64,000 bases of DNA from Pseudomonadota bacterium (GTDB lineage: Bacteria; Pseudomonadota; Alphaproteobacteria; Rickettsiales; UBA1997): assembly GCA_018970485.1 (NCBI GenBank), contig JAGWWH010000002.1:2465-66464 (forward strand). The letters run 5' to 3'. The translations under genes were made by a program, and so were the position numbers. Below the pieces are notes generated by a model, which had not been told where the DNA came from, did no database searches, and saw nothing but the letters and a program-made list of their open reading frames with translations. Positions 10,104 to 29,628 of this stretch are shown piece by piece (positions within the stretch are counted from its first letter, which is position 1; the number at the start of each line of letters is the position of its first letter).

Positions 10104-10107
10104 AAAT

Positions 10108-10668: not shown

Positions 10669-10673
10669 TAAAA

Positions 10674-10750
10674 GCACCCGTAGCTCAACTGGATAGAGTG
10701 TTGCTTTCCGAAGGCAAAGGTTGTGGGTTCAAATCCCGCCGGGTGCACCA
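10674..10750 (+). tRNA. tRNA-Arg (anticodon CCG), CCA encoded
   Basis: The cloverleaf was folded by hand. Acceptor GCACCCG/CGGGUGC, D-stem GCUC/GAGU, anticodon stem UUGCU/GGCAA with loop UUCCGAA, T-arm GUGGG-UUCAAAU-CCCGC, discriminator A plus CCA. Confidence 0.95.
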
Positions 10751-10799
10751 GCTAATTTTTTCTGAAGAAGGTGGAAATTCAGAACATTAAATTCATTTC

Positions 10800-11507
10800 A
10801 TGAAAGTCGTAACTGCAGCATTAATAATCATCGGAGACGAGATTCTGTCTGGTCGCACTCAGGATGTGAATTTAAATTTTCTTGCCTGCAATTTAAGTGA
10901 GATCGGAATAAATCTAAGCGAAGTTCGTGTCGTTCCAGATCTTGAAAAAGAGATAATTGATGCGGTTAACGCAGTTAGAAAAAAATTTGATTACGTCTTC
11001 ACATCGGGCGGAATCGGGCCAACTCACGACGACATTACATCCGAATCAATCGCCAAAGCTTTCGGAGAACAAGTCATAAAAAATCAAGAAGCTGCGGAAA
11101 TTTTAATCAAGCATTACGGCGAAAAAAATGTGAATGAAGCTAGAATGAAAATGGCGATGCTACCAAGTCGTGCCAGCCTTCTCGACAATCCCATTTCTTC
11201 CGCTCCCGGATTTCGTATTGAAAATGTTTTCGTGATGGCAGGTATTCCGAAAATTTTTCAGGCGATGTTTGTAGCAGCAAAAAAAGAATTAATCGGTGGC
11301 AAAACCAAGAAGTCGTTAGAGATCAAAATAAGCCTGACTGAAAGTATAATTGCGGAAGATTTTGCCATCTTACAAAAAAAATACCCACAAGTTGCTATGG
11401 GCTCTTATCCCTTTGATGGCGGTACTTCTTTGATATTTCGTAGCACCGACTACGAGGCACTAGAAAAAGCAAAATCTGAAATGGAAGTTATCCTAAAAAA
11501 TGCATAA
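10800..11507 (+). CDS. CinA-like molybdopterin-binding (MoCF_biosynth) domain protein
   Basis: 235 aa. The N-terminus AALIIIGDEILSGRTQDVN...FTSGGIGPTHDDIT is typical of the CinA N-terminal domain. Its stop overlaps the virB8-like start by 8 nt. Confidence 0.75.
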   Translation: MKVVTAALIIIGDEILSGRTQDVNLNFLACNLSEIGINLSEVRVVPDLEKEIIDAVNAVRKKFDYVFTSGGIGPTHDDITSESIAKAFGEQVIKNQEAAEILIKHYGEKNVNEARMKMAMLPSRASLLDNPISSAPGFRIENVFVMAGIPKIFQAMFVAAKKELIGGKTKKSLEIKISLTESIIAEDFAILQKKYPQVAMGSYPFDGGTSLIFRSTDYEALEKAKSEMEVILKNA

Positions 11508-12333
11508 GAGACTATCAGAACTAGCCAAGGAGAATAACGAAGAAGCGAAGGAATATTTTCACTTCATCAAGAGCTCGGTCAAAAATCGTAGCTACTTTAA
11601 TGACGCTCTCGATTGGTATCTCTTCCGCTACATCTCGCCGATTTGTGACCGCACCTTATTAATTTTTGGTTCGATAGTCGCTGCGGTGGTCATGTATTTT
11701 CTGATTCAGATGATTAATAGTGCCTTCCCTTTGGTTGTAAAAGAACCAATATTTATCAGATCAGTAGATCAAACCCAAAGCTTTCCAAGTCTGGTCGGCC
11801 TTAAGCCAAAAAAAGGTCAAGAAGGCTACGATCCAGAGCTAAGAAATGTCGATGAAGCCTACGCAAAATACTTGATCTCGTCTTACGTTAAAGATCGCGA
11901 AGGATATGATTTCAGCAAAGCAGAAATTGAGGATGTTAATAAAAAATTTAATCACATCCGAAACCTCTCTTCAGCCAGTGAATATAGGAACTTTCAGGCT
12001 TTGATGAGCAAAGATAATCCCAATAGTCCGATTCGTAATTTTGGCCTCAACATTGTCAAATCGATCGAAATTGATTCGGTTAGATTTGTTCGTAACGACC
12101 CTAAAGATCTCGCCACCAAAGCTCGCTTATACCTATCAAACAAAATACCAACTGAGGTTGAAGTTCGCTTTACAGCAATAATAAAAACTACGGACGACAA
12201 GGAAGAAACCAGCATCGAAAAAGAGCGCTATTTGGCAAAAATAAATTTTACTTTTGACGGCGTTAACAAAGATATTAAGAGCGGAGTTCTCAACTTCGTC
12301 GTCAACACTTACGCCCTCTACAAGGTAAAATAA
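11500..12333 (+). CDS. virB8: type IV secretion VirB8-like protein
   Basis: 277 aa, bitopic: cytoplasmic N-terminus with YFNDALDWYLFRY (as in Rickettsiales VirB8 N-termini from memory), one TM (LLIFGSIVAAVVMYFLI), and a periplasmic domain of about 200 aa. It overlaps the clear virB9 by 1 nt. Confidence 0.65.
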   Translation: MHKRLSELAKENNEEAKEYFHFIKSSVKNRSYFNDALDWYLFRYISPICDRTLLIFGSIVAAVVMYFLIQMINSAFPLVVKEPIFIRSVDQTQSFPSLVGLKPKKGQEGYDPELRNVDEAYAKYLISSYVKDREGYDFSKAEIEDVNKKFNHIRNLSSASEYRNFQALMSKDNPNSPIRNFGLNIVKSIEIDSVRFVRNDPKDLATKARLYLSNKIPTEVEVRFTAIIKTTDDKEETSIEKERYLAKINFTFDGVNKDIKSGVLNFVVNTYALYKVK

Positions 12334-13214
12334 TGAAGAAGATACTCATCCTCCTACTACTCGGAAACATCGTCATCACAAAAAACGTTATGGCCGCTCA
12401 ATTTCCGCATTATCTAGGAAGTGAAAAAAAATTCAGAAGCTACATCTACAATCCAAACGATGTTTATCGCTACGTTGGACACTACACCTACCAAGGATTT
12501 ATCGAATTTGAAGAAGGAGAAACGATCGGAACAATCTCTATGGGAAATCCCTCTCTCTGGCTATTTGAAACGCTCGGCAATCGTCTTTTTTTAAAACCAG
12601 TCGGCGAAGATAATTCTGAAACCAACATGACTGTAATCAGCAATAAGCGCGTCTACCACTTTGAGCTGATGGCAAAAGAGGCAAAAGGCATCACTGACAA
12701 AGATTTGATTTTCGTCGCCAAATTCGCTTATCCCGACGAGAAAGATAAAAACCTAGTTTCATTCCCAAAAACCCCAATTTCTGACGAGCCAGATCTGCGC
12801 GATTTAAGCATCTACAACTTCAACTACCAATATACGGGAGAGCCTTCGATAGCGCCAATTAAAATCTTTGATAACGGCGATTTTACCTACTTCCAATTTA
12901 CCAAAAAAAATGCCGAAATTCCGGCAATTTTCTCAGTTGACTCGGAAGGTTTTGAATCACTGGTAAATTTTAGAGCAGCGGGATCTTACATCATTGTCGA
13001 ACGCATCTCGCCACAATTTACTCTGCGCAACGGCGATCAAATAGTCTGCGTCTACAACATGGATGTCTACACCAACGGCAAGCAAAAAATGTCCAAACAA
13101 CAAAACGGCGGCATGATTAATAACTTTCCTGGCACAACAACAGAGCTCAACAGTCCGATGCCCGGCGGTATACAATTCCCTGGACAAATCCCTCCTGGGC
13201 AACCCACACCTTAG
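12333..13214 (+). CDS. virB9: type IV secretion VirB9/TrbG/CagX-family protein
   Basis: 293 aa with a signal peptide. N-domain motifs are GNPSLWLFETLGNRLFLKP and NKRVYHFEL. C-domain motifs are YNFNYQYTGE, PIKIFDNGDFTYFQF, LVNFR and TLRNGDQIVCVYN. It carries an extra P/G/Q-rich C-terminal tail. Confidence 0.85.
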   Translation: MKKILILLLLGNIVITKNVMAAQFPHYLGSEKKFRSYIYNPNDVYRYVGHYTYQGFIEFEEGETIGTISMGNPSLWLFETLGNRLFLKPVGEDNSETNMTVISNKRVYHFELMAKEAKGITDKDLIFVAKFAYPDEKDKNLVSFPKTPISDEPDLRDLSIYNFNYQYTGEPSIAPIKIFDNGDFTYFQFTKKNAEIPAIFSVDSEGFESLVNFRAAGSYIIVERISPQFTLRNGDQIVCVYNMDVYTNGKQKMSKQQNGGMINNFPGTTTELNSPMPGGIQFPGQIPPGQPTP

Positions 13215-13231
13215 AAGGACTAGAAGATTAG

Positions 13232-16200: not shown

Positions 16201-16723
16201 TCAACAAATGCTTTTGGAAACGATTGAAGAGCTAAAAAATAACAAAGATCTCGCTCCTTCATCAATCACTCCTAACGACGAAATCAGCATCCAAATCAAA
16301 CTCGGGATCTCTCTTCTCATACCCGAAGAATACATGCCAGACCTGTCTTTACGCATGAGTTTCTACAAAAAAATTGCGATGATAAAAGATGATGAAGATG
16401 CGCAAAATCTTGCCGACGAGATGAATGATCGCTTCGGAAAAACTCCGGAAGAAGTTTTGAATTTGATTGAAATCGCCAAGTTAAAACATCTGTGCAAAAA
16501 ACTTGGCGTCGAAAAGTTAGAAACGATTGCGGATGGCGTGGCCCTTGGCTTTAAGAATAATAAATTCAGAGATCCCGAAAAATTATTAGCGCTGATTTTT
16601 GCCAGTAAGAACAAAATAAAATTACATACTGGCCAAAAAGTTTTGTTCATTTGCGATGTTTCGTCAGTCCAAAATAAAATCTCTTCGGCTTTTGCGGTGA
16701 TGAAGAAATTGGAGAATCTGTGA
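13232..16723 (+). CDS. mfd: transcription-repair coupling factor
   Basis: 1,163 aa. Motifs are the CarD-like GELVVHRDHGIGRF, helicase motifs GDVGFGKTEV, IIDEEQHFGV, LTLSATPIPRS and QLRGRVGRG, plus a C-terminal TRCF domain. It contains an insertion of about 27 codons between motif I and Ia (see findings). Confidence 0.95.
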   Translation: MDYKIKLKNIRESCVLVKTPSDARGFLSAEVSKNFSDSDFVFVAKDDAEMELIQKQIHFFAPDFEILNFYAWDSLPFDRVSPKALISANRIKTLHRLMTRAEGKRFFIVTSVNSLLQKTIPAGQIKDLGLYLKIGSKASIPQISEFLVSKGYERRTCANSVGEFAIRGGIIDVVMQQAADLIGYRIDFLGDEVESIKVFDPITQITQEAVKSLEILPSSEVIFNKKTVENFRQKYRENFGASLDDQLYSAISENRSYPGMEHWLPFFYEENLVSFFDYLKNPITFFSEEILQLSKEREALINDYYQARIADLKIRSGTIYHPITPDLLYFSAADLEKILQKNVAIQFNKFDCEQKDRRILDLEIKPVPDFALAGRTNQKDPLELVKEFSQNSKVVIACLSESFRDRIAKILPDYGLKFPTILLPLNLGFYTSDSMLIGEQAIFGEKIIRKKSSKAASQRLIEEGLSIAQGELVVHRDHGIGRFEGIQTITAIGIKTDMIKIAYGGNETLFVPVHDIDLITRYGADNPLIQLDRLGLAAWKNRREKVRKRIKVAAEELLKIAAARHLKKAEIFAPDQNFYDEFKSRFGFVETEDQMRAIEEVEEDLAKGSPMDRLICGDVGFGKTEVAMRAAAIVVGNFSSVERSQNQENSTSPHLVSTPLNQSVSQIAIVAPTTLLVRQHYKNFSKRFDGTGVKIAQLSRLISTSEAKKIKEEIESGAIQIVIGTHALLQKNIKFKNLSLVIIDEEQHFGVAQKERLKELRNEVHVLTLSATPIPRSLQMSLTGVKDLSLIATPPLDRLAVRNFVMPYDSVIVREAVMREYNRGGRVFFVVPRIRDIEEMEPRLKILLPEIKITHAHGQMTPTELDQIMNDFVDGKIDMLLSTTIVESGIDISEANSMIIYKAEMFGLAQLYQLRGRVGRGKVRAYCYLMLDHRKKVSDESQKKLEVMQNLDSLGVGFTVATHDMDIRGSGNLLGDEQSGHVKETGVELYQQMLLETIEELKNNKDLAPSSITPNDEISIQIKLGISLLIPEEYMPDLSLRMSFYKKIAMIKDDEDAQNLADEMNDRFGKTPEEVLNLIEIAKLKHLCKKLGVEKLETIADGVALGFKNNKFRDPEKLLALIFASKNKIKLHTGQKVLFICDVSSVQNKISSAFAVMKKLENL
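15151..15215. repeat. imperfect palindrome (about 23-bp arms) inside the mfd coding sequence
   Basis: Left arm GGTTGAGCGCAGTCAAAACCAGG (15151-15173) versus the reverse complement of the right arm (15193-15215) GGTTGAGCGGAGTCGAAACCAAG: 20 of 23 positions match by hand. Confidence 0.8.
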
Positions 16724-17289
16724 TGGTATTTTTAGCAGTTTTTAGCGCTGCTCTAATCTTATTTGCGGCATTTTTTTTTCTTAGAAAATCTAAAAAATTT
16801 CAAAAATCAGAACCAGCCCCAACTATTTTAGACATTGATTCGGGATCATTTAAAAATGAAAAACCCCAAGCCTATCGAGCAACAATTTCACTTGAAGATC
16901 GTGATCACTCAATTCGTCCAGAAAACTATCAACAGAGAAATTTAGATCGCGAAGTTGGTGGATTTGAAGATGGGAAAAAGGGATCGGAAAAAGAAAATCA
17001 AAACCAGCAAGAAAAACATATTGAAGATGCTTGGGACAAGCGCTCGGAAGATGTTGATAAAATGGGCTCTTTCAATCCCTTGGCTGGGCATGACAAAGAA
17101 TCGATGATTTGGGGCTTAAAAAAAATAAGACTAAAAATTGCTAAACGTCTCAATCGTGATCGCGGCAAAAATGAGGCGGCGGGGAAAAATTATGATAGCA
17201 GAAGCCAAGAAGGTAGGTTTGCACAAGCGATCAGAGCTAGACAGGATTTTAGCCACGAAAATGGAGATGGTGGAAAAGTCAGTCGCTAA
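16720..17289 (+). CDS. hypothetical membrane-anchored, highly charged protein
   Basis: 189 aa with an N-terminal TM (VFLAVFSAALILFAAFFFL) followed by a K/E/D/R/Q-rich low-complexity region. Start GTG 16720 or ATG 16723 overlaps the mfd stop. No family recognised. Confidence 0.4.
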   Translation: MMVFLAVFSAALILFAAFFFLRKSKKFQKSEPAPTILDIDSGSFKNEKPQAYRATISLEDRDHSIRPENYQQRNLDREVGGFEDGKKGSEKENQNQQEKHIEDAWDKRSEDVDKMGSFNPLAGHDKESMIWGLKKIRLKIAKRLNRDRGKNEAAGKNYDSRSQEGRFAQAIRARQDFSHENGDGGKVSR

Positions 17290-17349
17290 CTAATTAAAAA
17301 ATAAACACACAATCTCGAAGGCGCGATCCCTCAATCTGATCACTTCTAA

Positions 17350-18585
17350 CTAACCAACTAGCTTCTCTAAAAACTTTTGGAACCAGCCATTTTTAACTTC
17401 AAAACCGTCTTTGATTTTTTCGCGCATCTGTAAGTTCTGCAAAAAAGACAACATACCAAGAGAGCATGAGTTTGTTTGGCTTAATAAAGTTTGTGGGATT
17501 TTCTCGAATTTATTTGGATAACCAATTCTAACATTCTTCTGAAAAATCTCCGCAGCCAACTTATCTATTCCAACCACCGCAGAAACTCCTCCCGTAAGCA
17601 CAATATTTCCGATCATAAAGAAGGGTACGCCGGATTTTTCTAAGGTTGATTTTGTTGACTCAAAAAGCTCTTCAAGTCTGGAAGAAATGATGTCGCGAAG
17701 ATCTGCTCTTGTAACGCTTACCATATTTTCACCTTCTTCATCTTGAGAATATTTAAACTTGATCGACTCCCTTTCTTCAATCGGGGAAATCAATAACGAA
17801 CTGTTTAGATTTTTAATTTTTTCTGCGGCTTGCGAGCTAATACCGAGAATAGTTGAGATGTCTCTAGTGATGTGACTTCCGCCGATTTTGGAGCTGCCGA
17901 CATAAAGTAATTTTCCTTCGGAGATTAAGGCGAATGACGTAGAGCTTCCGCCGATATCAACCAATAAAGTTCCGATATTCATTTCATTATCAGAAAGGCA
18001 TGAAAGCCCTGAGGCGTAAGGCTCGGCGATATAGCTATTCACTGATAGCTGGCAACGCTTTAGACAGTTTTCGATATTTTTAATTGTGGTTTGGGAAGTG
18101 GAGGCAACGTGGAATTTTGCATAAAGCTGCTCACCCGTCATGTAGCGCGGATTGACGATAGGCAAAGAGTCATCAAGCCTGTACTGCAAAGGAACTAGAT
18201 GAATTATTTCTCGATTTTTTTTCTTAAATTCAGCGCGAATTTTGTTGGTAAGATTGATGATGTCTGAATTCTTAACGATGTCAGAAGAGACCTTGCAGCT
18301 TACTTCTTGATGGGTTGAAACAATTTGGCATCCAGAAATTCCAACTAAAATTTGGTCGATATTAAGGCCCGCCATTCTCTCCGCTTCTGCAACCGCATTG
18401 GTAATTGATTTTTGCGCCAAACGCATGTCAGAGATCGCGCTAGCCAAAATTCCTCGCGATTCTTTATGGCCATATCCAAGTATTTTAACTTGATCGCCAT
18501 TAATAGCCGAAATTGTACAAACCAGCTTGGATGATCCCATATCAAGGCACGCGACAACTTTTCCTTTTCGTGGCTTTTTGGACAT
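17350..18585 (-). CDS. ftsA: cell division protein FtsA
   Basis: 411 aa with an actin-like fold. Motifs are VACLDMGSSKLV, LVDIGGSSTSFAL and LTGGVSAV. It follows ftsQ with a 1-nt overlap. Confidence 0.9.
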   Translation of the reverse strand: MSKKPRKGKVVACLDMGSSKLVCTISAINGDQVKILGYGHKESRGILASAISDMRLAQKSITNAVAEAERMAGLNIDQILVGISGCQIVSTHQEVSCKVSSDIVKNSDIINLTNKIRAEFKKKNREIIHLVPLQYRLDDSLPIVNPRYMTGEQLYAKFHVASTSQTTIKNIENCLKRCQLSVNSYIAEPYASGLSCLSDNEMNIGTLLVDIGGSSTSFALISEGKLLYVGSSKIGGSHITRDISTILGISSQAAEKIKNLNSSLLISPIEERESIKFKYSQDEEGENMVSVTRADLRDIISSRLEELFESTKSTLEKSGVPFFMIGNIVLTGGVSAVVGIDKLAAEIFQKNVRIGYPNKFEKIPQTLLSQTNSCSLGMLSFLQNLQMREKIKDGFEVKNGWFQKFLEKLVG

Positions 18586-19436
18586 TAGAGATTTTTTAAT
18601 TCTTTGATTACCGAGTCATTATACTCGAGGTAAATCTTATCAGGGACGCGCAAGTCAATAACTTTCAATCCTAGCAGAGATCCGGGCATATTGTTTATTT
18701 TTATCAAACGCTGCCAAGCCTCAGAAATTCCTGATTCTGGCAGTTTAATCAAAAGCCCATTTTCAAAATGAATATCCCATCTGCGATCACCGACCCAAGT
18801 CGCTGAAAAGACATTTTTACTTAAGTTTGGATCAATTGCGAAAATATTAAATATTGACCTGACGTTAGTATTGGCGCCCTTTCCTGATAATATTATCATG
18901 TCACGGAATTCTTCCAGATCTTCGAAGGGAATAATGTTTCCGTCACGATCAATTAAATATTTCTTACCATCATTTTGCCAAATCGCGAATGGCACGAATT
19001 CAGTAACGGTAATATTCAAACCACTAGGAAGGCTGCGGGTAATAGTGATTTGATTAATCCAAGGAAGTTTGGTTTTGATATCTTTAATGAGTTTTTGAAT
19101 CAGAAATTCAGGATTATTCTTTTTACTCTCATTAATTATTGCTTCGATCTCGTTCTTAGAGACTCTAAGGTTTCCCTTGATATTGATTTGTGCTAAATCT
19201 TTTTGCTCAAGGCTGAGCTGAGAGAAAAAATAATTACGGGACTCCGCATAAATTTTATGTAAAAAATCGGGCTTAAATATCTGCAAAGAGAAAAAAACCA
19301 AAATTAGCAATAATGCTAAAGCCAATAAAATCTTGAGCAAAAATGGCTTTAAGAAACGACTAAAGAAAACCCTTGCTCGACGTAAAAATGGATTGGTTAG
19401 AAAAAAATTATGAATTTTTTTTTGAGACGAACTCAT
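18585..19436 (-). CDS. ftsQ: cell division protein FtsQ
   Basis: 283 aa, bitopic (TM LLKILLALALLLILVFFSL), with a POTRA-like INIKGNLRVSKNEIEAII. It sits between ddl and ftsA. Confidence 0.7.
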   Translation of the reverse strand: MSSSQKKIHNFFLTNPFLRRARVFFSRFLKPFLLKILLALALLLILVFFSLQIFKPDFLHKIYAESRNYFFSQLSLEQKDLAQINIKGNLRVSKNEIEAIINESKKNNPEFLIQKLIKDIKTKLPWINQITITRSLPSGLNITVTEFVPFAIWQNDGKKYLIDRDGNIIPFEDLEEFRDMIILSGKGANTNVRSIFNIFAIDPNLSKNVFSATWVGDRRWDIHFENGLLIKLPESGISEAWQRLIKINNMPGSLLGLKVIDLRVPDKIYLEYNDSVIKELKNL

Positions 19437-20356
19437 TCGCAGCGCGCAGTTTTTACCAAAAATTCAACGATCTCTTCAAAGGAAATTCCGACATATTTAG
19501 CGATTTTTGGTACTAAAGAAGTTGCGGTGAATCCGGGGTGAGTATTGGTTTCGAGTAAATAAAATTGGTCATCACCACCATCTTTATTATTCAAAATAAA
19601 ATCGATTCTACTGACACCGCGACAACCAACAATTTTATGGCAGCGCTCTGCCAAATCCAAAACTTCTGCATATTTTTCAGGCCTGATTTCAGCTGGCATT
19701 ACGTAGTCAGTCATGCCAGCAGTATATTTACATTTGTAGTCGTAGAACAAGCCGTGCGGCCTTATTTCAATTGCTCCTAGAGCTTTATTATCCATCACTG
19801 CAACTTGGATTTCTTGTCCGGCCAAATATTTTTCGACAATGATTTCATCGCCATATTTCCACTCATATTTGGCGAAATCGAACTGGTTACTTGGCAAAAT
19901 AACTTCAACACCAACCGAAGATCCTTCGTTGATTGGCTTGATCACAAAAGGCTTTCCGACAGAAAAAATTTTTTCTTTATTTTTAGCATCTTCACCTTTT
20001 TTGAGAATTTCGTAATGTGGAGATTTTACACCAACAGTTGCAGAAATTTTTCTCGTCAAAACCTTATCCATGCAAATTGCCGAAGCGATAATTCCGGAGT
20101 GAGTGTAGGGAATTTGTAAAATATCGAAAACACCCTGAACTCGTCCATCCTCGCCGTATTGGCCGTGAAGAGCGTTAAAAACCAGATCGGGTTTTATTTC
20201 TTGTAACTGCTCAAAAATTTTGCGCGAGAAATCGATTTTAGTCGCCTTGTATCCCAATTTAATTAGAGCCTCAAAAACCGCTTCGCCAGAACGCAAAGAA
20301 ACTTCGCGCTCAGAATTCCAGCCGCCCATGAGCACAGCGACATGTTTATTTTTCAT
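19433..20356 (-). CDS. ddl: D-alanine--D-alanine ligase
   Basis: ATP-grasp Ddl motifs are VAVLMGGWNSEREVSLRSG, ALHGQYGEDGRVQG and LLETNTHPGFT. The track ORF extends to 20419, but MKNKHVAVLMGG at 20356 matches the usual N-terminus. Confidence 0.9.
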   Translation of the reverse strand: MKNKHVAVLMGGWNSEREVSLRSGEAVFEALIKLGYKATKIDFSRKIFEQLQEIKPDLVFNALHGQYGEDGRVQGVFDILQIPYTHSGIIASAICMDKVLTRKISATVGVKSPHYEILKKGEDAKNKEKIFSVGKPFVIKPINEGSSVGVEVILPSNQFDFAKYEWKYGDEIIVEKYLAGQEIQVAVMDNKALGAIEIRPHGLFYDYKCKYTAGMTDYVMPAEIRPEKYAEVLDLAERCHKIVGCRGVSRIDFILNNKDGGDDQFYLLETNTHPGFTATSLVPKIAKYVGISFEEIVEFLVKTARCE

Positions 20357-20669
20357 TATTTTTATTGTCTTTTTTATTGGATATTGCTGTCGCCTTTTTG
20401 GCATCTTCGGCGATCGCACTTGCTGACCTAAGCTCTGCGATCACATATTCACAAAGATCCTCGAAAGGAACGCGATTTCTTTCTGAAATATCCACAAGTT
20501 TAGCGAAAGATTTCATGATCTGTGGCGGGACTAAAACGCGCTTAGTTGTTGAGAGCCATTTAGCTTGAAAAGCCAGCGGATGAGAGCCGATAGCGGGATC
20601 TCCAACATAAAGATCAACCGGAATCTCTTGATCACCAAAATTGCACTTCGCGGTAAATTTTTTTGGCAT
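20346..20669 (-). CDS. small conserved hypothetical protein (possibly DUF2610-like)
   Basis: 107 aa: MPKKFTAKCNFGDQEIPVDLYVGDPAIGSHPLAFQAKWL...VPFEDLCEYV. It recalls a small family conserved in intracellular proteobacteria (from memory). It is packed between the giant ORF (9-nt gap) and ddl (overlap). Confidence 0.5.
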   Translation of the reverse strand: MPKKFTAKCNFGDQEIPVDLYVGDPAIGSHPLAFQAKWLSTTKRVLVPPQIMKSFAKLVDISERNRVPFEDLCEYVIAELRSASAIAEDAKKATAISNKKDNKNNEK

Positions 20670-20678
20670 AATTTTTGT

Positions 20679-23600
20679 TTATTCTGTCGAGTATTTTTTT
20701 GCGAATTTCTCTAAATCCTCAAGACTCCTCGCCTTTGTAAAAGCAGACTTAATATTTTCTGAATTATTTCCAGAAGCTCTTGCCTCAATTTCTTTAGCTC
20801 GATTAATTGTGCCACGCGCCTCATCAATCTTTGCTCCAAGCGCCTCTTGATTGGAAATTTTTGTATCGATCTGATGGACAGCCGCAGTTCTCTCCCTGAA
20901 TTCCTTCAATTCTTGGCTTTTAGCAAGACGACTCTCCTCATATCTCATTTCTGAGAAAGCACGGGAAGCCTCTTCTTCTCTTCTCTTTTTTTGATCTGGA
21001 TCAGCCAAACGTGATGCGTCTACTTTCAGTTTGTTATAGTTATCTCTTAAGCCTTTGATCTTGTTTTGTTGAGTTTTAACCGCCTGACCAGACTGATCTA
21101 AGGCAATCATCGCACTCTCCCTTGCAGCTTTAAGTACGGATAATTCTTTTGTATTTACCTCGCCAACCTTGTTGACTCTTTCTGCTAAAATATCCGCTCC
21201 TGACCTTTGAGCAGCAGCTTGTTGCTTGTATCTTTCTCTACTTTCCGACCAAGGATTCACTTCTTTTAAGAAATTACCTAAGCTTGCACTAGCTTTCTTA
21301 AGTGCCTTATAACCATCTCCAATATCTCGCCTTTCATCAATCTCTTCCAGAGTCTTTAAGTGATCAGACTTCCTCAATAAGCCAGCAGCCTTTTCTAATT
21401 TGGGAGCGGGAGGGATCGCAAATTTTTGTTCTCTTTTATTTTGGGAGGAACGTTGACCAACTAAATCTTTTTCATCTTTAGGTCTGGAGAATTCCATTCC
21501 TCCCAATCTTCCGGAGGCCGTTCCTTCTTTTTCCAACTGCTGTTTAGCATCTCTCTTCTCACTACTATCCAAACCTGATGCACTCTTCACAGAGCCAACA
21601 AAATCCATGTTTGGATCAATCATTTGAAACGGAGTATTAATAACTGACTTAGCTCCTGCTCCAATAGATCTTTTAGAGAGATAGGAAGAGAGAGTTGAAG
21701 TAGGCTCTCTGGTTGAAATTTGTCCATTAGCTAATCCTTCATTAACCTTGGCTCTTTCTTCTGGATTCATCCTCTTCATGGCTGCTCTAAGCTCACCTGT
21801 GGACGCCCTACCGCTGGTTTCTTTAGCCATTTCTCCCAAAGACTTGGTTAGAGTGTTGCTGCCTCTAAATTGTTTGTATAAGGAACCAAACACTGTCTTG
21901 GCTCCTGCGGTTTTTGGACCTTTGTTGCTCATTAGCCTTTCTATTTCTGCAGCACTGGTTACGCCACGTCTTCTCGCTTCTTGCTTCATTGCATCCTCAA
22001 CAGCTTTGACGGCTTGTTTGTCTTTTTCTGGACCATCTTCCATAAATGGATTCGCTTTTCTGAATTCTTTAGCTGCATTTTTACCCGCTTCGAGCATGGC
22101 ATTTTCATGTTCTCGATCTGAGATTCCTTTTTTCTCTTCATCGCTGCGTCTCTTATCAGCACCTCCTCCAGAATCAAAAATTTTATCATCTAAGAAACTC
22201 AAAGCCCTTCCCGCTGTCTCTCCATAAATTCTGTTTGTAACTGGATCAACAACAGCCTTTTTAAACTCTTCAGCAGTTTGCTTTATTCCCGCACTCATCT
22301 CAGTGGTTTTTAGTCCTCCGGAAATAACCGCAGCGACCTTGGTCATAAAATCAATAAATTGCTCCATCAGCGAAGCTATAACCCAAATAAATAGAATGGT
22401 GAAGATTGAAGGAATTCCTTCTGGATTACCGATATTTCCAACTTGTGAATTTGCGTTAGTCCTTGGTGGCAGTGAAGCTATCGTCCAAAAAGACATTAAA
22501 GAAATTCTGGTGATGCCCAGATTCATCACCCAAACCTCATCCCAACAAACTTTGTAACCGAGAGACATCTTGATAACTTCATACATCAGCATGTTGAAAA
22601 AGGCCAAAGTGATCAAAAGCAAAATCTGCTGCAATGAGAAGCCAATCAGTTGTTTAACCCAATTATCAAACATTTCTTTGGTTTGATTGAAGAGCATAAA
22701 AATGAAGAAGATCGGACCAACAACAAACAAGATTGAGATGAAAACCTGCGCGGTGAGATAAAGCAAAACGGCACTTGCAATGGCATACATGTAATGGATG
22801 AAACTCCACCAAATGATCAGCAAGTAGGCCCAGCCAAAAATACTGGCGAAAAGCAATGCTGAGAGTTTTTTCTGTACTGCTGGAGCGAAAAATAAATTCA
22901 GAACGTTATCGACACTCGAAAACAAAACTGATTTGTCGTAAAGATCACCAGAATCTAAGGCCTGCGAGATTTCGGGCGAATCATCAAATGATGAGGCCAT
23001 CATGAATGAAAGGTAGTCGGTTCCTTCTTTGAAAAAGCGAACGAAAAACATTTGGAACCAATCCCATCCAGTCTCTCCGACCATTAAATAAATAAATCCA
23101 ATCTTGATAACGCGATTGAAAATTTCGGCGTGATTCAGTTCGCTTACTCCCAGTAGGTATCCAACCCCATAAAATGTTAGCATTACCACCAAACAAACCG
23201 TCAAAATTGCTTTGTAGCGAGTGTCGGCGATTAGCAGTTTGTAAACTCTTTCTGCCTGACCGATCGTTGATTCATCTTCTTCCGTAGATGGATTGTCTCT
23301 CTTGCCATCCATTACCTCTAAAACTGGGGTTATTACTGAGCTAATGATGCTAGAAACTGCGACGGTGGAATCGCTTTTGACCTTAACATTAACGTAATAT
23401 TCGCCGGAATTATTGCTGTACTTACTCGCGCAGTAATATTGCTTGGCGCAGGTTCCAGGGTGATTCGAACTGTCGTCGCCCGGAGTTTCACTTGATTCAC
23501 AAGTAAGGCCAATATTGCTCGCAACGCTACTATTGTAATAAGGATTGGTGGTTTTGATTCCATCATTTGCTTCAATCAGAGTGCAGTTACCAATTTCTGG

Positions 23601-26600
23601 ATCGAGAATTTTGAAGGTTAGGCGCAGCTTCTTATTTTCGTTGTTTATGCCTTCTTTTTCGTTTTCGTTTTTATTCTTAAGAGAGGCGGCTGAGTAGTAG
23701 TTGTAAGTGTGGCAATAAAAGGTTGATCCCGCGCCAGTCTGCAAACCATTTGCAGCAAGTGTGCAATCTCCAGAAACATTAGCACTATTGACTCTGTATA
23801 GATTTCCACTGCTATCAAAGTTATAGTTACTGTCACCATATAAAGTATCTGGCAATGTACCAACCAAATCAGGGTTTGATGGGGATGAGATATTGATTAT
23901 CTGTGGCTGGTTATTTGTAGATGCGAAGTTGGGTGGTGCAGAAATGCTCTTACACAAAGAGCTATCACTATCACTTTCTTTGCAGAGCCGTACTTGCATC
24001 CACTGACCATTCTTGAAACTCAAGCTACCGGAAAAACCGATCTCAATACCGTTGCTGCCGTTATAAGATCCGGAAGGGTTTGTATTATCTGCGTAGGCAG
24101 TCCAAGCGCCGTTGTTGGTGGAATCTACAAAATTTTCTCCATCGAGAATCAAGGTTTTTATTCTCGAATCACCACTAACCGAATATGTGGTGTTGGCGTT
24201 ATAAACTTTCTTTCCTCCAACTGAAGTTTGGCCGCTATCTGAAAAACCAGAGATATTTCCATATTTGCCATTAAAGCCGCCTAGCTTTGTTGCATTCTTA
24301 GATAATTTTGAGTTCTCGAGAAAGTTCTTCACTTCCTCTATCGAATCTGGAATAGAAGGAATATTAGCAACTTTTCCGGTGTAATTTTCTAAGTCGTAAC
24401 ATTGAGCTATATTGTTGACCGTTTGAAGGGCTGGCGCTTCGCCATGAGCCAACATTAGATCTGAACAACTTCTACACTTATCCTTGGCGTTAGGATCGGT
24501 CACATTAATCAGAGCATCATTACATTCAGCTCTATCGGCTTTAGATGGGCTAGGTCGACTACAATCTCTTGCGTAATTATTGCTTGCATTTTCGGTGCAA
24601 GTGATCGTGTCGATGCACTCATTGTGAGGACAATATTGGGGCGCATTGGGATCGTAACATTCCGAAGCAATCGCCTGACATCCCAAAAGTGAACCGTTAC
24701 TTCCTAATTGCGGCGAACAGTCTGGATTGGAAACCAGCTCTAATACGCTGCCTCGGCAAAGAAGGGCTGGCCTAGGAATTATCTTCATGGCCATTCCTAC
24801 GCCACACTTTCTACTTAAAGAATTTCCAGTACTCCATACTCCTATCCAACTCTCTGGATAGAGACGAATTTTCTGACCTTTACGCACAAAAACTTGATTC
24901 GTAGTAGCCGATTCTCCGGGAGAAAATTCTGGCGAACCATTCAAGCTGGCATTAACGCTTAGTAAAGTTTGGAGAGGATCTTGCGAGGTCGAGCTGTCGC
25001 GGGTTCCATATTCATAAAAATCTGCTTCATAATAAGTTGTAGTGTCGGCATTAAAATTGGTGTGGCTTCCGGTTGGATTAATGATTCTACCCTTGATATT
25101 GCAGCTTCCACTTGCTGATCCGCTATCTCCGCCAAGTATAAAAAATCTGACAAATCCAGACTGATCCATGATCAAATCATGGTGCTTCAAAAACCTAATT
25201 CCGATCATCCTTCCGCAATTTATTCCCGCGACGTTATGAAAATTAGCGTTCTGGTTGATTACCAATTTATGTCCCGCCTCTAGATTAATTTCATCCGTCG
25301 TCCAACTATTTCCAATGCTGACAGCATTAAATTTATCAAGTTGGTTATTACTCGAATCCTTAACCGAAACAACAAGATCGTTTTCAGTTCCGCTATTACA
25401 TGATGCATCTCCAGTTAAAGACCGGAAAGAAACTGCGTAAGCATCATTGTAAGTATTTTGAATACTCACATCACCTGAAGAAATATCTCCGAGAAGAATT
25501 CCATCTTTCACCGCAACGCCGTTTATGTTTGGACATGAACCAGTGGAATCACATGTGACACCAGAAAAAGGATCAAAATCACTATCTCTCAAGCCATCTC
25601 CAGACCATCTAATAATGCCGCCGCTTTTGGTTAAGTTGGGAGATTTTGAATCAGCAGAGATTGGAAAAGCTGCGTTGGTCAAAACGTCATCAACATTGGC
25701 ATATCCAAGACTTACGTAGGAAGAATTTCCGCATGATGCTTGGAGAGGATCGGGTCCATTGTAGCTACATTTCCAAGCTTTTTCGTCAGGCAATAGAGGA
25801 ACTTTTCTGGAACCCTCTCTTTCTGTAAATTTTGTCGTATCAAAGCCGCCGTAGCCCTGTGGGTGTTTAATGGTGTAAATAACTAACTTTTTGGCCAGAT
25901 TGTAAAGATCGCTCTCAGCATTGGTTTCGCCGAGTTTCACAGTTGGCACAGTATTTGCATCACTGGCATATGCCAAACCACTAAAACTCAAAACCAGTGA
26001 TTGACCATCTCGCGCATCAAAAACTCTATTTTGCCATGTCGAATTATATGAATGTGGAATTGGATCATTCGCTTTCAAGAAAAGATCTGGATATTCCACA
26101 GAATTTCCTAACTCGACATTGCCAATAGCTCTCACAATCACTTGCGAGCCAGGCCTGATTGTTACGCCAGAATTTTGTCCACCACCTTTTTCATCAGTTG
26201 ATGTCCAAGAAGGTTCTGCGCCGGAAGAATTTGAGCTTCCTACGGAGGAAAGGCAGGATTGTATGCAGTTGTTAATACAAATATTTTGGAAGGTCGCATT
26301 ATCAAGACCTGAGCACCCTGCTGTCTCGCTGGTCATACTACCACCATTCTCATTGCCAACAGTAACTTCTCCCGTGGTTAGGCAGGATTTTATTCCGCTG
26401 CCTTGGGTAGAATCGGTTATGCTAACAGAGCTGTCGTAAGAGCAATTTTCTTGTTGAGCATTTGCACTGACCGTGACGGTTTGCGACTCATATTCACCAA
26501 AATCATCGGCATCAATACATCCAGAATCTTTACAGGAAAAAATCAAAAAAGAGGCAGCAAGAAGCAGTAAGAAACTACGTAAATTTTTCGTTAGTCTAAA

Positions 26601-26612
26601 ACTGGTTGGCAC
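20679..26612 (-). CDS. giant VirB6/TrbL-like polytopic membrane protein with Cys-rich N-terminal ectodomain and charged C-terminal tail
   Basis: Uninterrupted 1,977-codon ORF with a GTG start. The signal or lipobox-like N-terminus is LLLLAASFLIFSC. Residues about 1133-1435 carry 6-7 hydrophobic spans, including VVGPIFFIFMLFNQTKEMFDNWVKQLIGFSLQQILLL (TrbL/VirB6-like core). The flanking regions were not recognised. Confidence 0.7.
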   Translation of the reverse strand: MPTSFRLTKNLRSFLLLLAASFLIFSCKDSGCIDADDFGEYESQTVTVSANAQQENCSYDSSVSITDSTQGSGIKSCLTTGEVTVGNENGGSMTSETAGCSGLDNATFQNICINNCIQSCLSSVGSSNSSGAEPSWTSTDEKGGGQNSGVTIRPGSQVIVRAIGNVELGNSVEYPDLFLKANDPIPHSYNSTWQNRVFDARDGQSLVLSFSGLAYASDANTVPTVKLGETNAESDLYNLAKKLVIYTIKHPQGYGGFDTTKFTEREGSRKVPLLPDEKAWKCSYNGPDPLQASCGNSSYVSLGYANVDDVLTNAAFPISADSKSPNLTKSGGIIRWSGDGLRDSDFDPFSGVTCDSTGSCPNINGVAVKDGILLGDISSGDVSIQNTYNDAYAVSFRSLTGDASCNSGTENDLVVSVKDSSNNQLDKFNAVSIGNSWTTDEINLEAGHKLVINQNANFHNVAGINCGRMIGIRFLKHHDLIMDQSGFVRFFILGGDSGSASGSCNIKGRIINPTGSHTNFNADTTTYYEADFYEYGTRDSSTSQDPLQTLLSVNASLNGSPEFSPGESATTNQVFVRKGQKIRLYPESWIGVWSTGNSLSRKCGVGMAMKIIPRPALLCRGSVLELVSNPDCSPQLGSNGSLLGCQAIASECYDPNAPQYCPHNECIDTITCTENASNNYARDCSRPSPSKADRAECNDALINVTDPNAKDKCRSCSDLMLAHGEAPALQTVNNIAQCYDLENYTGKVANIPSIPDSIEEVKNFLENSKLSKNATKLGGFNGKYGNISGFSDSGQTSVGGKKVYNANTTYSVSGDSRIKTLILDGENFVDSTNNGAWTAYADNTNPSGSYNGSNGIEIGFSGSLSFKNGQWMQVRLCKESDSDSSLCKSISAPPNFASTNNQPQIINISSPSNPDLVGTLPDTLYGDSNYNFDSSGNLYRVNSANVSGDCTLAANGLQTGAGSTFYCHTYNYYSAASLKNKNENEKEGINNENKKLRLTFKILDPEIGNCTLIEANDGIKTTNPYYNSSVASNIGLTCESSETPGDDSSNHPGTCAKQYYCASKYSNNSGEYYVNVKVKSDSTVAVSSIISSVITPVLEVMDGKRDNPSTEEDESTIGQAERVYKLLIADTRYKAILTVCLVVMLTFYGVGYLLGVSELNHAEIFNRVIKIGFIYLMVGETGWDWFQMFFVRFFKEGTDYLSFMMASSFDDSPEISQALDSGDLYDKSVLFSSVDNVLNLFFAPAVQKKLSALLFASIFGWAYLLIIWWSFIHYMYAIASAVLLYLTAQVFISILFVVGPIFFIFMLFNQTKEMFDNWVKQLIGFSLQQILLLITLAFFNMLMYEVIKMSLGYKVCWDEVWVMNLGITRISLMSFWTIASLPPRTNANSQVGNIGNPEGIPSIFTILFIWVIASLMEQFIDFMTKVAAVISGGLKTTEMSAGIKQTAEEFKKAVVDPVTNRIYGETAGRALSFLDDKIFDSGGGADKRRSDEEKKGISDREHENAMLEAGKNAAKEFRKANPFMEDGPEKDKQAVKAVEDAMKQEARRRGVTSAAEIERLMSNKGPKTAGAKTVFGSLYKQFRGSNTLTKSLGEMAKETSGRASTGELRAAMKRMNPEERAKVNEGLANGQISTREPTSTLSSYLSKRSIGAGAKSVINTPFQMIDPNMDFVGSVKSASGLDSSEKRDAKQQLEKEGTASGRLGGMEFSRPKDEKDLVGQRSSQNKREQKFAIPPAPKLEKAAGLLRKSDHLKTLEEIDERRDIGDGYKALKKASASLGNFLKEVNPWSESRERYKQQAAAQRSGADILAERVNKVGEVNTKELSVLKAARESAMIALDQSGQAVKTQQNKIKGLRDNYNKLKVDASRLADPDQKKRREEEASRAFSEMRYEESRLAKSQELKEFRERTAAVHQIDTKISNQEALGAKIDEARGTINRAKEIEARASGNNSENIKSAFTKARSLEDLEKFAKKYSTE

Positions 26613-28419: not shown

Positions 28420-29628
28420 CTAATCTTTTGGAATAATTTTTTTAATTTCTTCGCTTACAATTTTTTCAACTAACTGAGACAGATTTTCGTTAAGCCACTT
28501 TTCTAACTTTGGCTCAAGCATCTGAATCGCAAGCTCAGAAAGCATTGGGCTTTGCGAGAAATTAGAAATTCCTAAGACAACATTTTTAGCGTCGAGCAAC
28601 TTCTTAACAGAATTTGAGGTCTGTTTGATGGTATCTTCATTTAGCATAATTCCTCTCTGTTCGACAAATAGTTGATTCGATTTTGTTGGCACTTCCGTTG
28701 CGACCTGAGATTGATTTTGTGAAAAGGAAAATTCTGATATTTCTTGTGCAGGAGCTTCTTGAAAAATATCGGGTTCGATAAGTTTTGGCATCGGCTCCAA
28801 ATCAGGATAGCTGGCTCTCTGCGCTTCTGGAGTAAGAGTTGTAAAATCTGGCTTTTGATCTGGTTTTTTAATACCGAGCAGCTCTTCATTTAACTCAAGA
28901 TGAACATCGCTTTTTTCAACTTCGGCTTCAGCAGCTAGATCTTTCTGTCTTTGAATTTCTCGCTCTAACTCATCGATCTCAGCATCGTGAGAATGATTTT
29001 CTGTCGGACGAGTCGCCTCTTTAACTTCCGATTTTCGCTCTTTTACAACCTCTTCCAAATCGAGATCGTGAAAATCTAAATCAAGATCTTCATCCTTTGT
29101 TGACGCGCTATTGCTAGCGGTTTCCGGTTCACTTTTATCTTTTTTTAGTTCGTTAAAGTTTAGAGACCCCTCTCCGACTAAAGATGAATCGGCCTTTTCT
29201 TTCTGAAGCTCTTCTGCAATTTCTTTTTCAATCTGATCCTCGGAATCATCTTCATTTTCATAATCTTCGCCACCGTCCTTATTAAAATCTTCAAGGGAAT
29301 CTTTGTTCTGAGTGGTAGCAGAGAATTCAGGCAATAAAGGTTTAACGGCAACCTCATCATCTAAGTCAGTGTCTTCCGACAAATATTTTTCTTTCTCTAA
29401 AAAAGATTCTTCTTTTGTGACTTGTTCAGCTTGGAGTGAAGGGGTTTGGAAATTTGTTGATTGAGCTGAAATTGAGATTTTTTGAGCTGTGGTTTCATCT
29501 TTTTTGACCGGAGCAACGTAATCAAACTCACTAGCAAAATCCGCGATTTGATTTGTCGGTTTTTGATCGAATTTATTTAGCTTTTTTTTGATCGAATCCA
29601 AAATCGAATGCGTGTTTTTTTCTGACAT
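28420..29628 (-). CDS. PopZ-like (DUF2497) acidic pole-organising-type protein
   Basis: 402 aa. It has an N-terminal helix HSILDSIKKKL and a long E/D/S/K-rich acidic middle. The C-terminus MLSELAIQMLEPKLEKWLNENLSQLVEKIVSEEIKKI resembles the PopZ/DUF2497 C-terminal domain (from memory). Confidence 0.55.
   Translation of the reverse strand: MSEKNTHSILDSIKKKLNKFDQKPTNQIADFASEFDYVAPVKKDETTAQKISISAQSTNFQTPSLQAEQVTKEESFLEKEKYLSEDTDLDDEVAVKPLLPEFSATTQNKDSLEDFNKDGGEDYENEDDSEDQIEKEIAEELQKEKADSSLVGEGSLNFNELKKDKSEPETASNSASTKDEDLDLDFHDLDLEEVVKERKSEVKEATRPTENHSHDAEIDELEREIQRQKDLAAEAEVEKSDVHLELNEELLGIKKPDQKPDFTTLTPEAQRASYPDLEPMPKLIEPDIFQEAPAQEISEFSFSQNQSQVATEVPTKSNQLFVEQRGIMLNEDTIKQTSNSVKKLLDAKNVVLGISNFSQSPMLSELAIQMLEPKLEKWLNENLSQLVEKIVSEEIKKIIPKD

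Follow-up and report, generated by a model that had tools for sequence, protein, structure and literature searches.

The window, by which is meant the whole stretch of 64,000 nucleotides that was analysed, carries one VirB6 copy, encoded by a single ORF with a GTG start and a product of 1,977 aa (Table 1). NCBI has the same protein as MBU6140077.1, under the name 'type IV secretion system protein'. An ORF of 5.9 kb in DNA of ~41 % GC cannot be of chance origin, and its translation divides, almost exactly as the residue counts of the original prediction had it, into a signal peptide, a Cys-rich ectodomain of ~1,100 aa, a VirB6 core and a charged tail. All the motifs quoted in that prediction (GSQVIVRAIGN, GQSLVLSFSG, GHKLVINQNA and GQKIRLYPES, together with the core string LFVVGPIFFIFMLFNQTKEMFDNWVKQLIGFSLQQILLL) are present in the translation. 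The gene lies between cysK-cysE upstream and DUF2610-ddl-ftsQ-ftsA downstream. The T4SS genes virB8 and virB9 are scattered among housekeeping genes in the same window, forming a pair between a MoCF gene and mfd that lies ~7 kb from the VirB6 gene, non-adjacent to it. The virB9 product also matches the P-type VirB9 profile NCBIfam TIGR02781 (E 2.3e-62), with 210.8 bits against a cut-off of 217.7, and thus below it. No virB10 follows the pair in the window, and the pair resembles in this the orphan virB9a-virB8a pair of Rickettsia (PMC2653234), a likeness that is only suggestive.

Table 1. Coordinates of the extended VirB6 gene, its regions and the other T4SS genes of the window
Feature	Position	Strand	Basis
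Whole gene, extended VirB6 (RvhB6-type)	20679..26612, stop codon included	-	ORF listing and translation
Lipoprotein-type signal peptide, residues 1-27, ending in lipobox L-I-F-S-C27	26532..26612	-	Sequence and Cys27 conservation
Ectodomain, residues 28-1130, Cys-rich, mostly beta strands, without known family or fold	23223..26531	-	Conservation and AF2 model
Densest Cys cluster, residues 603-738, 13 Cys	24399..24806	-	Cys positions and conservation
VirB6/TrbL core, residues 1131-1435, hydrophobic helices, with W1318 and C1356	22308..23222	-	Pfam, TrwI sequence and fold
Tail, residues 1436-1977, Cys-free, A/K/E/R-rich	20682..22307	-	Composition and AF2
virB8-like gene, 277 aa	11500..12333	+	Pfam VirB8 PF04335, E 1.1e-11
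virB9 gene, 293 aa, adjoining virB8 and followed by mfd	12333..13214	+	Pfam CagX, E 1.1e-55

The identity of the core, which had been proposed as TrbL/VirB6, is supported by sequence and by predicted fold. Pfam TrbL (PF04610) matches residues 1142-1347 at E 3e-18 with 66.8 bits (gathering cut-off 25.9), and the same family is precomputed in 91 of 91 homologues. The sole significant match among PDB sequences is TrwI, the solved VirB6 of R388 (phmmer E 4.6e-4). TrwI chains (7o3v_G/F/J and 8rtd_L) are also the top Foldseek matches of the AF2 core, with a probability of 1.00 and a target-normalised TM-score of 0.56-0.64, at E values of only 0.05-0.17. The modelled core is all-helical and has the five or more hydrophobic helices of the VirB6 fold, the hydrophobic spans lying at residues ~1133-1159, 1249-1312 (two to three helices), 1321-1349 and 1397-1424. 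It is the most conserved part of the protein, with 58-84 % identity across the family. An essential Trp in the TM-cytoplasmic region has been described as conserved among VirB6 proteins (Gillespie 2009, PMC2653234). A candidate here is W1318 of the motif MFDNW, which does not vary among 24 cores aligned within the family only, one of them from a paralogue that is just 22 % identical. C1356 precedes a predicted beta-hairpin (AF2 model residues 284-298).

At the other end of the protein, the N-terminus reads ...LLLLAASFLIFSC and agrees, read by eye, with the PROSITE PS51257-type lipobox rule, as had been expected from its lipobox-like LIFSC: a positively charged n-region, a hydrophobic h-region and [LIVMF..]-x-[AGS]-C are found within the first ~35 residues (R6 ... 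LLLLAASFLIFS-C27). Cys27 is kept in 99 % of the 90 homologues, 83 of the 98 homologues whose N-termini are complete show a PS51257-like lipobox together with a K/R n-region, and the motif that follows, C-[TS]-D-x-G-C-I-[DE]-A-D-D-F-G-E-Y, is nearly invariant. Cys27 is therefore a likely site of lipidation, judged from sequence.

The ectodomain is rich in S (13.0 %), N (9.4 %), G (9.1 %) and T (6.6 %), and the original estimate of about 36 N-terminal Cys agrees with the count: the protein contains 38 Cys, 36 of them within residues 27-1061 and exactly 13 within residues 603-738. Among the 90 homologues, whose ectodomains are 30-55 % identical, the 35 Cys of this region are 87-100 % conserved and C1356 of the core about 100 %, and the 13 of the dense cluster reach 97-100 % in the 90 closest. 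Where Cys are lost, they go in pairs (354/360, 950/967, 877/887, 1010/1061 and 77/116), as expected for disulfides; together, retention and paired loss are the signature of an oxidised, extracytoplasmic N-domain. AF2 models the ectodomain with a pLDDT of 81.5 and a pTM of 0.74, placing short strands and helices at residues 603-738 (pLDDT ~80-90) and a low-confidence linker at residues ~1082-1094, immediately ahead of the core.

Despite this good model, a Foldseek search of PDB and BFVD returned nothing at E <= 0.001, Pfam and NCBIfam profiles gave no match at E <= 1 beyond noise, and phmmer found no match among PDB sequences. The N-terminal region is thus not a member of a known adhesin family by any of these searches, in line with the original description of an unfamiliar architecture. 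The Foldseek similarities that do occur are weak and local and suggest beta-sandwiches of carbohydrate-binding, CUB or GOLD type, such as CBM4-2 with a probability of 0.90 over 99 columns. The suggestion that recurrent strand motifs mark several beta-sandwich or lectin-like modules is borne out in small part: modules at residues ~150-270 and ~515-650 align to each other (hhalign probability 83 %, E 8e-6, 44 columns), but profile search found no SUEL or other lectin domain in the query protein. SUEL lectin domains (galactoside/rhamnose-binding) are inserted in the ectodomain of 3,300-aa relatives only.

The tail is made up largely of A (11.6 %), K (11.3 %), E (10.5 %) and R (7.9 %), and because the last Cys of the protein is residue 1356, it is Cys-free, as had been stated. 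It was also predicted to be disordered or coiled-coil; however, it is not simply disordered, since AlphaFold gives long confident helices at residues ~1685-1975, joined to the core by low-confidence linkers. A profile search of PDB with the tail brought up coiled-coil proteins alone (SMC4 and TolA, E >= 0.0014), and its identity across the family is just 12-29 %. The topology of the tail is uncertain: in R388 VirB6 only two helices traverse the membrane (PMC12857230), and in Anaplasma trypsin reaches the C-terminal extensions of VirB6-3 and VirB6-4 at the cell surface (PMC7648143).

The order of N-domain, core and tail recurs in more than 100 full-length homologues. It was followed in 90 further full-length proteins (91 in all) from independent assemblies in NCBI, ENA, JGI and Logan, and from end to end in 69 loci from different species. 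When the N-domain was run exhaustively by phmmer against 1.84 billion representative proteins, 119 clusters were returned, every complete one of which consists of the N-domain and then the core; among these representatives, the N-domain was found only fused ahead of this VirB6 core, and no protein of classical RvhB6 size was recovered. The carriers are environmental Rickettsiales, including the MAGs UBA2645 and RIFCSPLOWO2_01_FULL_40_26, and most of the others are labelled Rickettsiales. Both MAGs were placed in Ca. Gamibacteraceae by Schoen et al., and the lineage has been proposed to be ectosymbiotic (10.1101/2021.08.31.458344). The host of the present gene is probably an uncultured aquatic Rickettsiales-like alphaproteobacterium, Gamibacteraceae-like, given protein identities of 36-64 % and shared synteny.

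Enlarged VirB6 proteins are known from Rickettsiales, as had been pointed out earlier. RvhB6a-e of Rickettsia (674-1,154 aa), VirB6-1 to -4 of Anaplasma and Ehrlichia (up to 9,935 aa) and the present protein share a TrbL/VirB6 core with large, fast-evolving hydrophilic flanks; rvh VirB6 and this family are also alike in their several paralogues per genome (a trait that is only probable here, to judge from related contigs), in their scattered layout and in belonging to Rickettsiales without a reported VirB5. Multicopy VirB6 and the lack of VirB5 are regarded as hallmarks of rvh systems (PMC11077975; Deianiraea preprint). These systems also have VirB4, VirB8 and VirB9 in duplicate, and VirB7 was not found in Deianiraea. 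The rvh systems, which the original prediction had cited for comparison, are where the protein belongs, in view of the homologues in Gamibacteraceae and the virB8-virB9 pair in the window. However, whereas classical rvh arrays have virB6 after virB3-virB4, no virB3-virB4-virB6 array is present at this locus; no virB4 was called within 10 kb in related loci, and a lone virB3 lies near one homologue in the related contigs. The extension itself also differs: it is N-terminal, ~1,100 aa long, lipobox-anchored and held by ~18 conserved disulfides, and it is well conserved (by the identities given above), unlike the divergent flanks described for Rickettsia. The hydrophilic domains of extended VirB6 proteins have been described as 'central or C-proximal' (2025 review, PMC12857230). 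The N-terminal placement of the extension is what is new here, since those of described extended VirB6 proteins are central or C-terminal.

Outside Rickettsiales, TrwI of R388 and VirB6 of Agrobacterium (~300-340 aa) have a core homologous to the present one by Pfam, PDB sequence and predicted fold, but these minimal proteins have neither an ectodomain of 1,100 aa nor a tail of 540 aa, and the upper stalk is made by a separate VirB5 pentamer, carried in R388 by the VirB6 pentamer (PMC12857230; PMC9259494). A periplasmic N-terminus agrees with the topology that has been mapped for VirB6 of Agrobacterium (as cited in PMC7648143). DotA of the Legionella Dot/Icm system (type IVB) likewise joins a VirB6-like helical core to a large, disulfide-stabilised periplasmic extended domain and has a signal peptide; it is a VirB6-like pentamer with five disulfides per subunit, in which the extended domain crowns the pentamer and forms a central protochannel with IcmX (10.1101/2025.06.23.660953). 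By analogy, this periplasmic domain would be the best functional counterpart of the present ectodomain. The resemblance is architectural only: Foldseek (E <= 0.001), phmmer and profile search of a PDB copy that possibly lacks the DotA coordinates matched the ectodomain neither to the extended domain of DotA nor to VirB5. The present ectodomain is about twice as large, with about three and a half times the disulfides, the systems are of different types (P-type/rvh here, type IVB for DotA), and the present protein is not known to have an IcmX or VirB5 partner. TraG of the F plasmid, too, combines a VirB6-like membrane domain with a large hydrophilic extracytoplasmic domain, which has a part in cell-cell contact (mating-pair stabilisation and entry exclusion). 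Likened here by description, its hydrophilic domain is C-terminal and without a lipobox anchor, unlike that of the present protein, and it is not known to be Cys-rich.

Altogether, the protein is probably an extended VirB6 that serves as a subunit in a P-type, rvh-like T4SS, with the ectodomain as a periplasmic cap or stalk. A channel cap or adhesin fused to VirB6 had been suggested from the outset, and it is the preferred reading here as well. By analogy with R388 and DotA, this cap or stalk may stand in for VirB5, which rvh systems lack. The protein would be exported by Sec and then lipidated at Cys27, and the N-domain would fold in the periplasm with ~17-18 disulfides. As R388 TrwI/VirB6 and Legionella DotA do, the core may form a pentamer in the middle of the inner-membrane complex, and the five ectodomains would then form a large periplasmic cap or cylinder atop the VirB6 dome. 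Such a cap would join the dome to the VirB9/VirB10 outer-membrane complex, a contact that, like the pentamer, is proposed by analogy with those systems, and would gate or extend the translocation path, doing the job of the VirB5 pentamer in R388 or of the DotA extended domain with IcmX in Dot/Icm. The poorly conserved, positively charged helical tail would most likely be cytoplasmic, on the ATPase or substrate-docking side. Since the ectodomain of larger relatives contains SUEL lectins, part of it may bind glycans of the target cell or envelope. The missing array and the ectodomain's lack of detectable similarity to DotA or VirB5 are points against a cap role.

The same lectin insertions in the largest relatives also favour a surface adhesin or tip, in which the ectodomain would reach through or sit in the outer-membrane complex and bind the target cell, whether protist host or prey bacterium, as a covalent VirB5-like tip, perhaps once proteolysis has freed it from the membrane core. 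The weak carbohydrate-binding, CUB and GOLD fold matches, the surface exposure of extended VirB6 in Anaplasma, the proposed ectosymbiotic lifestyle of the lineage and the linker ahead of the core all point in this direction. However, the ectodomain would be tethered twice, by an N-terminal lipid and by the C-terminal membrane core, its high pTM speaks for a compact body of ~120 kDa rather than a drawn-out fibre, and the query protein has no lectin domain and no known cleavage site; a role as adhesin or tip is thus possible but doubtful.

Much less credible is a stand-alone device derived from a T4SS, as had also been raised in the original prediction; it could be an envelope-spanning tether or channel linked to cell division. 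The VirB6 gene lies away from virB3/virB4 and immediately precedes DUF2610-ddl-ftsQ-ftsA, from which no terminator-like site separates it, a position that would fit such a role in division. The closest relatives have this synteny too, but it is limited to them, most family members being found in a trmE ... Elm1-like context. Moreover, T4SS genes of Rickettsiales are as a rule scattered (PMC2653234), the core, which is the best conserved part, has retained the VirB6 fold, and one homologue has virB3 close by; homologues in Ca. Gamibacteraceae MAGs and virB8-virB9 in the same window make this reading very improbable. An artefact, with two or three genes fused in assembly, could be suspected on the sole ground that the contig comes from a metagenome-assembled genome, and its probability is close to nil: the same architecture is present in 91 proteins from independent assemblies, in 69 loci and in all complete matches of the exhaustive search, and base composition is even along the gene. 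An assembly chimera, which would have undone the original prediction, is refuted by the shared order of N-domain, core and tail in independent full-length homologues.

A bolder version of the cap or stalk reading, in itself unlikely, would have the lipidated 18-disulfide N-domain as a new, covalently attached module that builds the whole central stalk or cap and touches the target cell, in aquatic Rickettsiales that lack VirB5. Its acyl anchor would be in or near the outer membrane, and its C-terminal end would be the VirB6 pentamer of the inner membrane. If true, it would represent a previously unseen construction of a T4SS translocation channel and might hold the key to the docking of extracellular Rickettsiales on protist hosts. 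Related contigs also carry extra giant VirB6 paralogues, of 1,475 aa (L001) and 1,622 aa (L004) and in tandem pairs (L068 and L070).

As first proposed, the giant VirB6 gene is one uninterrupted ORF of 1,977 aa with a GTG start, and its product is recorded at NCBI as MBU6140077.1, from a 118.7-kb MAG contig, under the name 'type IV secretion system protein'. A recount of the translation gave 38 Cys in total, 36 of them within residues 27-1061, exactly 13 in residues 603-738 and none beyond residue 1356. The hydrophobic spans (about 1133-1159, 1249-1312, 1321-1349 and 1397-1424), the composition (S/N/G/T-rich ectodomain, A/K/E/R-rich tail) and every peptide motif quoted in the original prediction were also recovered. 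An assembly chimera of two genes is excluded, because the same architecture is conserved across independent homologues from NCBI, ENA, JGI and Logan assemblies. A scan for promoters and terminators gave nothing informative.

The region suspected of being a TrbL/VirB6 core is one, with a Pfam match over residues 1142-1347 (E 3e-18, 66.8 bits vs a threshold of 25.9). The only significant match among PDB sequences was TrwI, the VirB6 of plasmid R388 (E 4.6e-4; query 1136-1344 vs TrwI 35-222), and a whole-family profile run against the same sequences returned coiled-coil noise on the tail only. In the AlphaFold2 model of residues 1076-1977 (pLDDT 73) the core is all-helical, and the best PDB folds for this model were the TrwI chains of the R388 stalk (Foldseek probability 1.00, target-normalised TM-score 0.56-0.64, but Foldseek E only about 0.05). 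The Cys-free tail carries a net charge of +18 and has a K/R-rich start past the last hydrophobic helix, so that by the positive-inside rule it is placed in the cytoplasm, although both the topology of the R388 protein and the results on Anaplasma would allow another placement. It had been expected to be disordered or coiled-coil; AlphaFold2 predicts low-confidence linkers followed by long helices, so the tail is not simply disordered.

Database searches yielded 91 proteins including the query (1,758-3,399 aa, identity 33-64 %, the query itself 100 %), mostly covering most or all of the query length, with three covering only 51-63 %; identities by region are tabulated below. The N-terminus bears an export signal with the near-invariant motif L-x-S-C-[TS]-D-x-G-C-I-[DE]-A-D-D-F-G-E-Y, in which the lipobox Cys27 is kept in 99 % of 90 homologues, and a PROSITE-type lipobox was found in 83 of the 98 homologues having complete N-termini. 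The 35 other ectodomain Cys are 87-100 % conserved among the 90 homologues. Across an alignment of 154 full-length members, Cys are lost in pairs (354/360, 950/967, 877/887, 1010/1061 and 77/116), as disulfide partners would be; combined with the export signal, this pattern places the ectodomain outside the cytoplasm. Once Cys27, the presumed site of lipid modification, is set aside, the number of ectodomain Cys is odd, and C1356, which is kept in 100 % of the 90 homologues and precedes a predicted beta-hairpin of the core, could be a 36th, pairing with one of them.

The ectodomain (N-domain) had no match in Pfam or NCBIfam, nor among PDB sequences with either a single sequence or the family profile. 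Its AlphaFold2 model, built with 36 homologues as input, is good (pLDDT 81.5, pTM 0.74); beta strands predominate in it, and one stretch is helical and Cys-rich. Foldseek searches of the whole model against PDB and BFVD returned nothing at E <= 0.001, only pieces of about 100 residues corresponding to generic beta-sandwiches that resemble CBM4, CUB or GOLD. Recurrent strand modules had been suggested from the sequence, and this is weakly borne out: internal repetition is slight, limited to a resemblance of residues about 150-270 to 515-650. An exhaustive phmmer search over 1.84 billion representative proteins returned 119 clusters, and with purpose-built HMMs for N-domain, core and tail, the N-domain was followed directly by the VirB6 core in every complete match, incomplete matches being fragments from cut contigs. 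The N-domain defines an uncharacterised domain family without a Pfam model; the domain is about 1,100 residues long, and at 50 % identity the family forms about 120 clusters. Proteins of the classical Rickettsia RvhB6a-e size (674-1,154 aa) were absent among the phmmer matches. The comparison of N-terminal flanks with classical RvhB6 rests on this negative result, because a profile of 24 VirB6 cores aimed at Rickettsia, Anaplasma and Wolbachia RvhB6 returned only short fragments. In the largest relatives, galactoside/rhamnose-binding lectin domains of the SUEL type are inserted in the ectodomain, which fits an extracytoplasmic and possibly ligand-binding role.

Positions of the giant VirB6 gene, its regions and the neighbouring or related features (window coordinates unless a relative's locus is named)
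Feature	Position	Strand	Size	Remarks
Giant VirB6 gene	20679-26612	-	1,977 aa	order cysK-cysE-[VirB6]-DUF2610-ddl-ftsQ-ftsA
N-domain	residues 28-1130			identity to query 29-56 %
Core	residues 1131-1435			identity to query 58-84 %
Tail	residues 1436-1977			identity to query 12-29 %
DUF2610 gene	20346-20669	-	107 aa	start 10 bp after VirB6 stop
virB8-like and virB9	11500-13214	+	277 and 293 aa	isolated pair between a MoCF-biosynthesis (molybdopterin-related) gene and mfd
ORF at position matching the L001 paralogue	16720-17289		189 aa	no family match
KirBac-type channel	2309-3187	+	292 aa	IRK_C (E 5e-28), Ion_trans_2
DUF2497 protein	28420-29628	-	402 aa	weak PopZ-family match (E 9e-5)
Surface-polysaccharide cluster	32277-59833	both		
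Second giant VirB6 paralogue, unrelated	L001 (closest relative) 19777-24204	-	1,475 aa	right after ftsA
P0086, P0089, P0090 (homologues)	L004 (a relative) 10001-20113		about 3,300-3,400 aa	two or three SUEL and a Gly-rich domain as ectodomain insertions

The window is chromosomal, with many housekeeping and polysaccharide-synthesis genes, and the neighbourhood of the giant VirB6 gene includes T4SS genes. A virB8-virB9 pair lies about 7 kb away and is not followed in the window by virB10, virB11 or virD4. The rvh system of Rickettsia likewise has scattered genes, including an orphan virB9a-virB8a pair (PMC2653234), which the pair in the window resembles, and the scattering seen here is the arrangement typical of an rvh system. 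The isolated pair suggests that the genome has another cluster, virB8-virB9-virB10-virB11-virD4, outside the window. A lone virB3 was found on a related contig.

When one genome was scanned per GTDB species, the family turned up at 69 loci, nearly all of them in MAGs from freshwater, groundwater or another aquatic source that carry the label Rickettsiales or Alphaproteobacteria. Many record titles among L005-L073 read 'Rickettsia typhi', 'Rhizobium sp. Q54', 'uncultured Rhizobium sp.' or 'Lentimonas sp.'; because these are freshwater MAGs with such gene content, the titles look like automatic mislabels. The carriers include UBA2645 and RIFCSPLOWO2_01_FULL_40_26, two MAGs on which Ca. Gamibacteraceae was founded; this bacterial family is sister to Deianiraea, an extracellular symbiont of Paramecium (10.1101/2021.08.31.458344). 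All lineages that carry the VirB6 family are presumed to be extracellular. Deianiraea itself has three VirB6 copies and no VirB5, with VirB7 undetected (10.1101/479196). Paralogues also occur within the family, as tandem pairs of giant VirB6 at L068 and L070 and as a 1,622-aa member beside a 3,370-aa one at L004. The unrelated paralogue of L001 has its own Sec signal and 28 Cys up to residue 532; its VirB6 core spans about 557-814, and an S/A/K/E-rich tail follows. Because the plan of Cys-rich ectodomain, VirB6 core and charged tail recurs in it, this three-part layout is a theme of the lineage.

Extended VirB6 proteins are already known, and databases call this one a T4SS component. It belongs both to VirB6/TrbL and to the extended VirB6 proteins of RvhB6 type; in extended VirB6 proteins, extra hydrophilic domains are described as 'central or C-proximal', with role unknown (2025 review, PMC12857230). 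The flanks of Rickettsia RvhB6 are highly divergent (PMC2653234), and the Anaplasma extensions are C-terminal repeats (PMC7648143). The new part is the ectodomain: in the literature searched, a set outside which the dedicated RvhB6 review Gillespie 2016 falls, no N-terminal ectodomain was found described that is conserved, anchored by a lipobox, rich in disulfides and about 1,100 aa long. Variable VirB6 extensions are to be expected, but the ectodomain would still be useful and somewhat surprising to T4SS specialists. The role of the duplicated, enlarged Rickettsiales VirB6 has been called unknown (Gillespie 2009, PMC2653234; 2025 review, PMC12857230; a Wolbachia cryo-ET preprint), and the family offers a clean case for this question, its extension being long, well conserved, confidently modelled and clearly extracytoplasmic.

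The R388 VirB6 is a pentamer in which only two N-proximal helices per subunit span the inner membrane, the rest forming a periplasmic dome topped by the VirB5 pentamer; VirB6 and VirB5 jointly make up the stalk and serve as the platform on which the pilus grows (PMC9259494; PMC12857230). Legionella DotA is a VirB6-like pentamer with a signal peptide, whose periplasmic extended domain has five disulfides per subunit and locks onto the VirB5-like IcmX, giving a central protochannel (10.1101/2025.06.23.660953). This extended domain is functionally closest to the giant VirB6 ectodomain, although the latter is not in the DotA family. The rvh systems have no VirB5 (PMC11077975; 10.1101/479196; the Wolbachia cryo-ET preprint). 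The best-supported reading is that the giant VirB6 would form a pentamer, its ectodomains together making up an enlarged cap or cylinder in the periplasm that would take over the role of VirB5 and may link the VirB6 dome to VirB9/VirB10. This reading builds on what the analysis shows, namely a VirB6 core, an export signal, Cys lost as disulfide partners would be, an N-domain fused to this core alone, and T4SS genes nearby; the pentamer, the placing of the cap and the takeover from VirB5 are inferred. The main rival explanation is a surface-exposed ectodomain working as an adhesin, which is favoured by the lectin insertions of the relatives and by the finding that VirB6-3 and VirB6-4 of Anaplasma are exposed at the cell surface (PMC7648143); as to a known adhesin family, the Pfam, NCBIfam, PDB and Foldseek results show that the ectodomain is not one. 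If the periplasmic cap is correct and the ectodomain is the central periplasmic part, it would explain how rvh systems function without VirB5 and give a concrete target for cryo-ET and multimer modelling.

Two other associations were considered and rejected. DUF2610 follows the VirB6 gene in the closest relatives only (L001, L005, L048) and is not a conserved partner; the DUF2610 and ddl ORFs as called share 74 bp, but the true ddl start probably lies further downstream, at MKNKHVAVL. The cysE/ddl synteny is equally limited to the closest relatives, which argues against a stand-alone device tied to the division cluster. Most family members instead sit behind a block that, in L002, L004, L068 and L070, comprises trmE (mnmE), a small ORF, a SPOUT methyltransferase, a CTP-transferase-like gene and a Mito_fiss_Elm1-like gene, the last being an unusual and constant neighbour directly upstream of family members, sometimes of tandem pairs. 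The DUF2497 gene adjoins cysK, has conserved counterparts upstream in L001 and L005, and may encode a polar organising protein. Elsewhere in the window are the KirBac-type channel gene and the long surface-polysaccharide cluster, which contains DegT aminotransferases, several glycosyltransferases (GT1, GT2, GT10 fucosyltransferase-like, GT61), a B12-binding radical SAM enzyme, sugar-nucleotide enzymes, TPP-dependent enzymes, an acyltransferase and an ABC ATPase.
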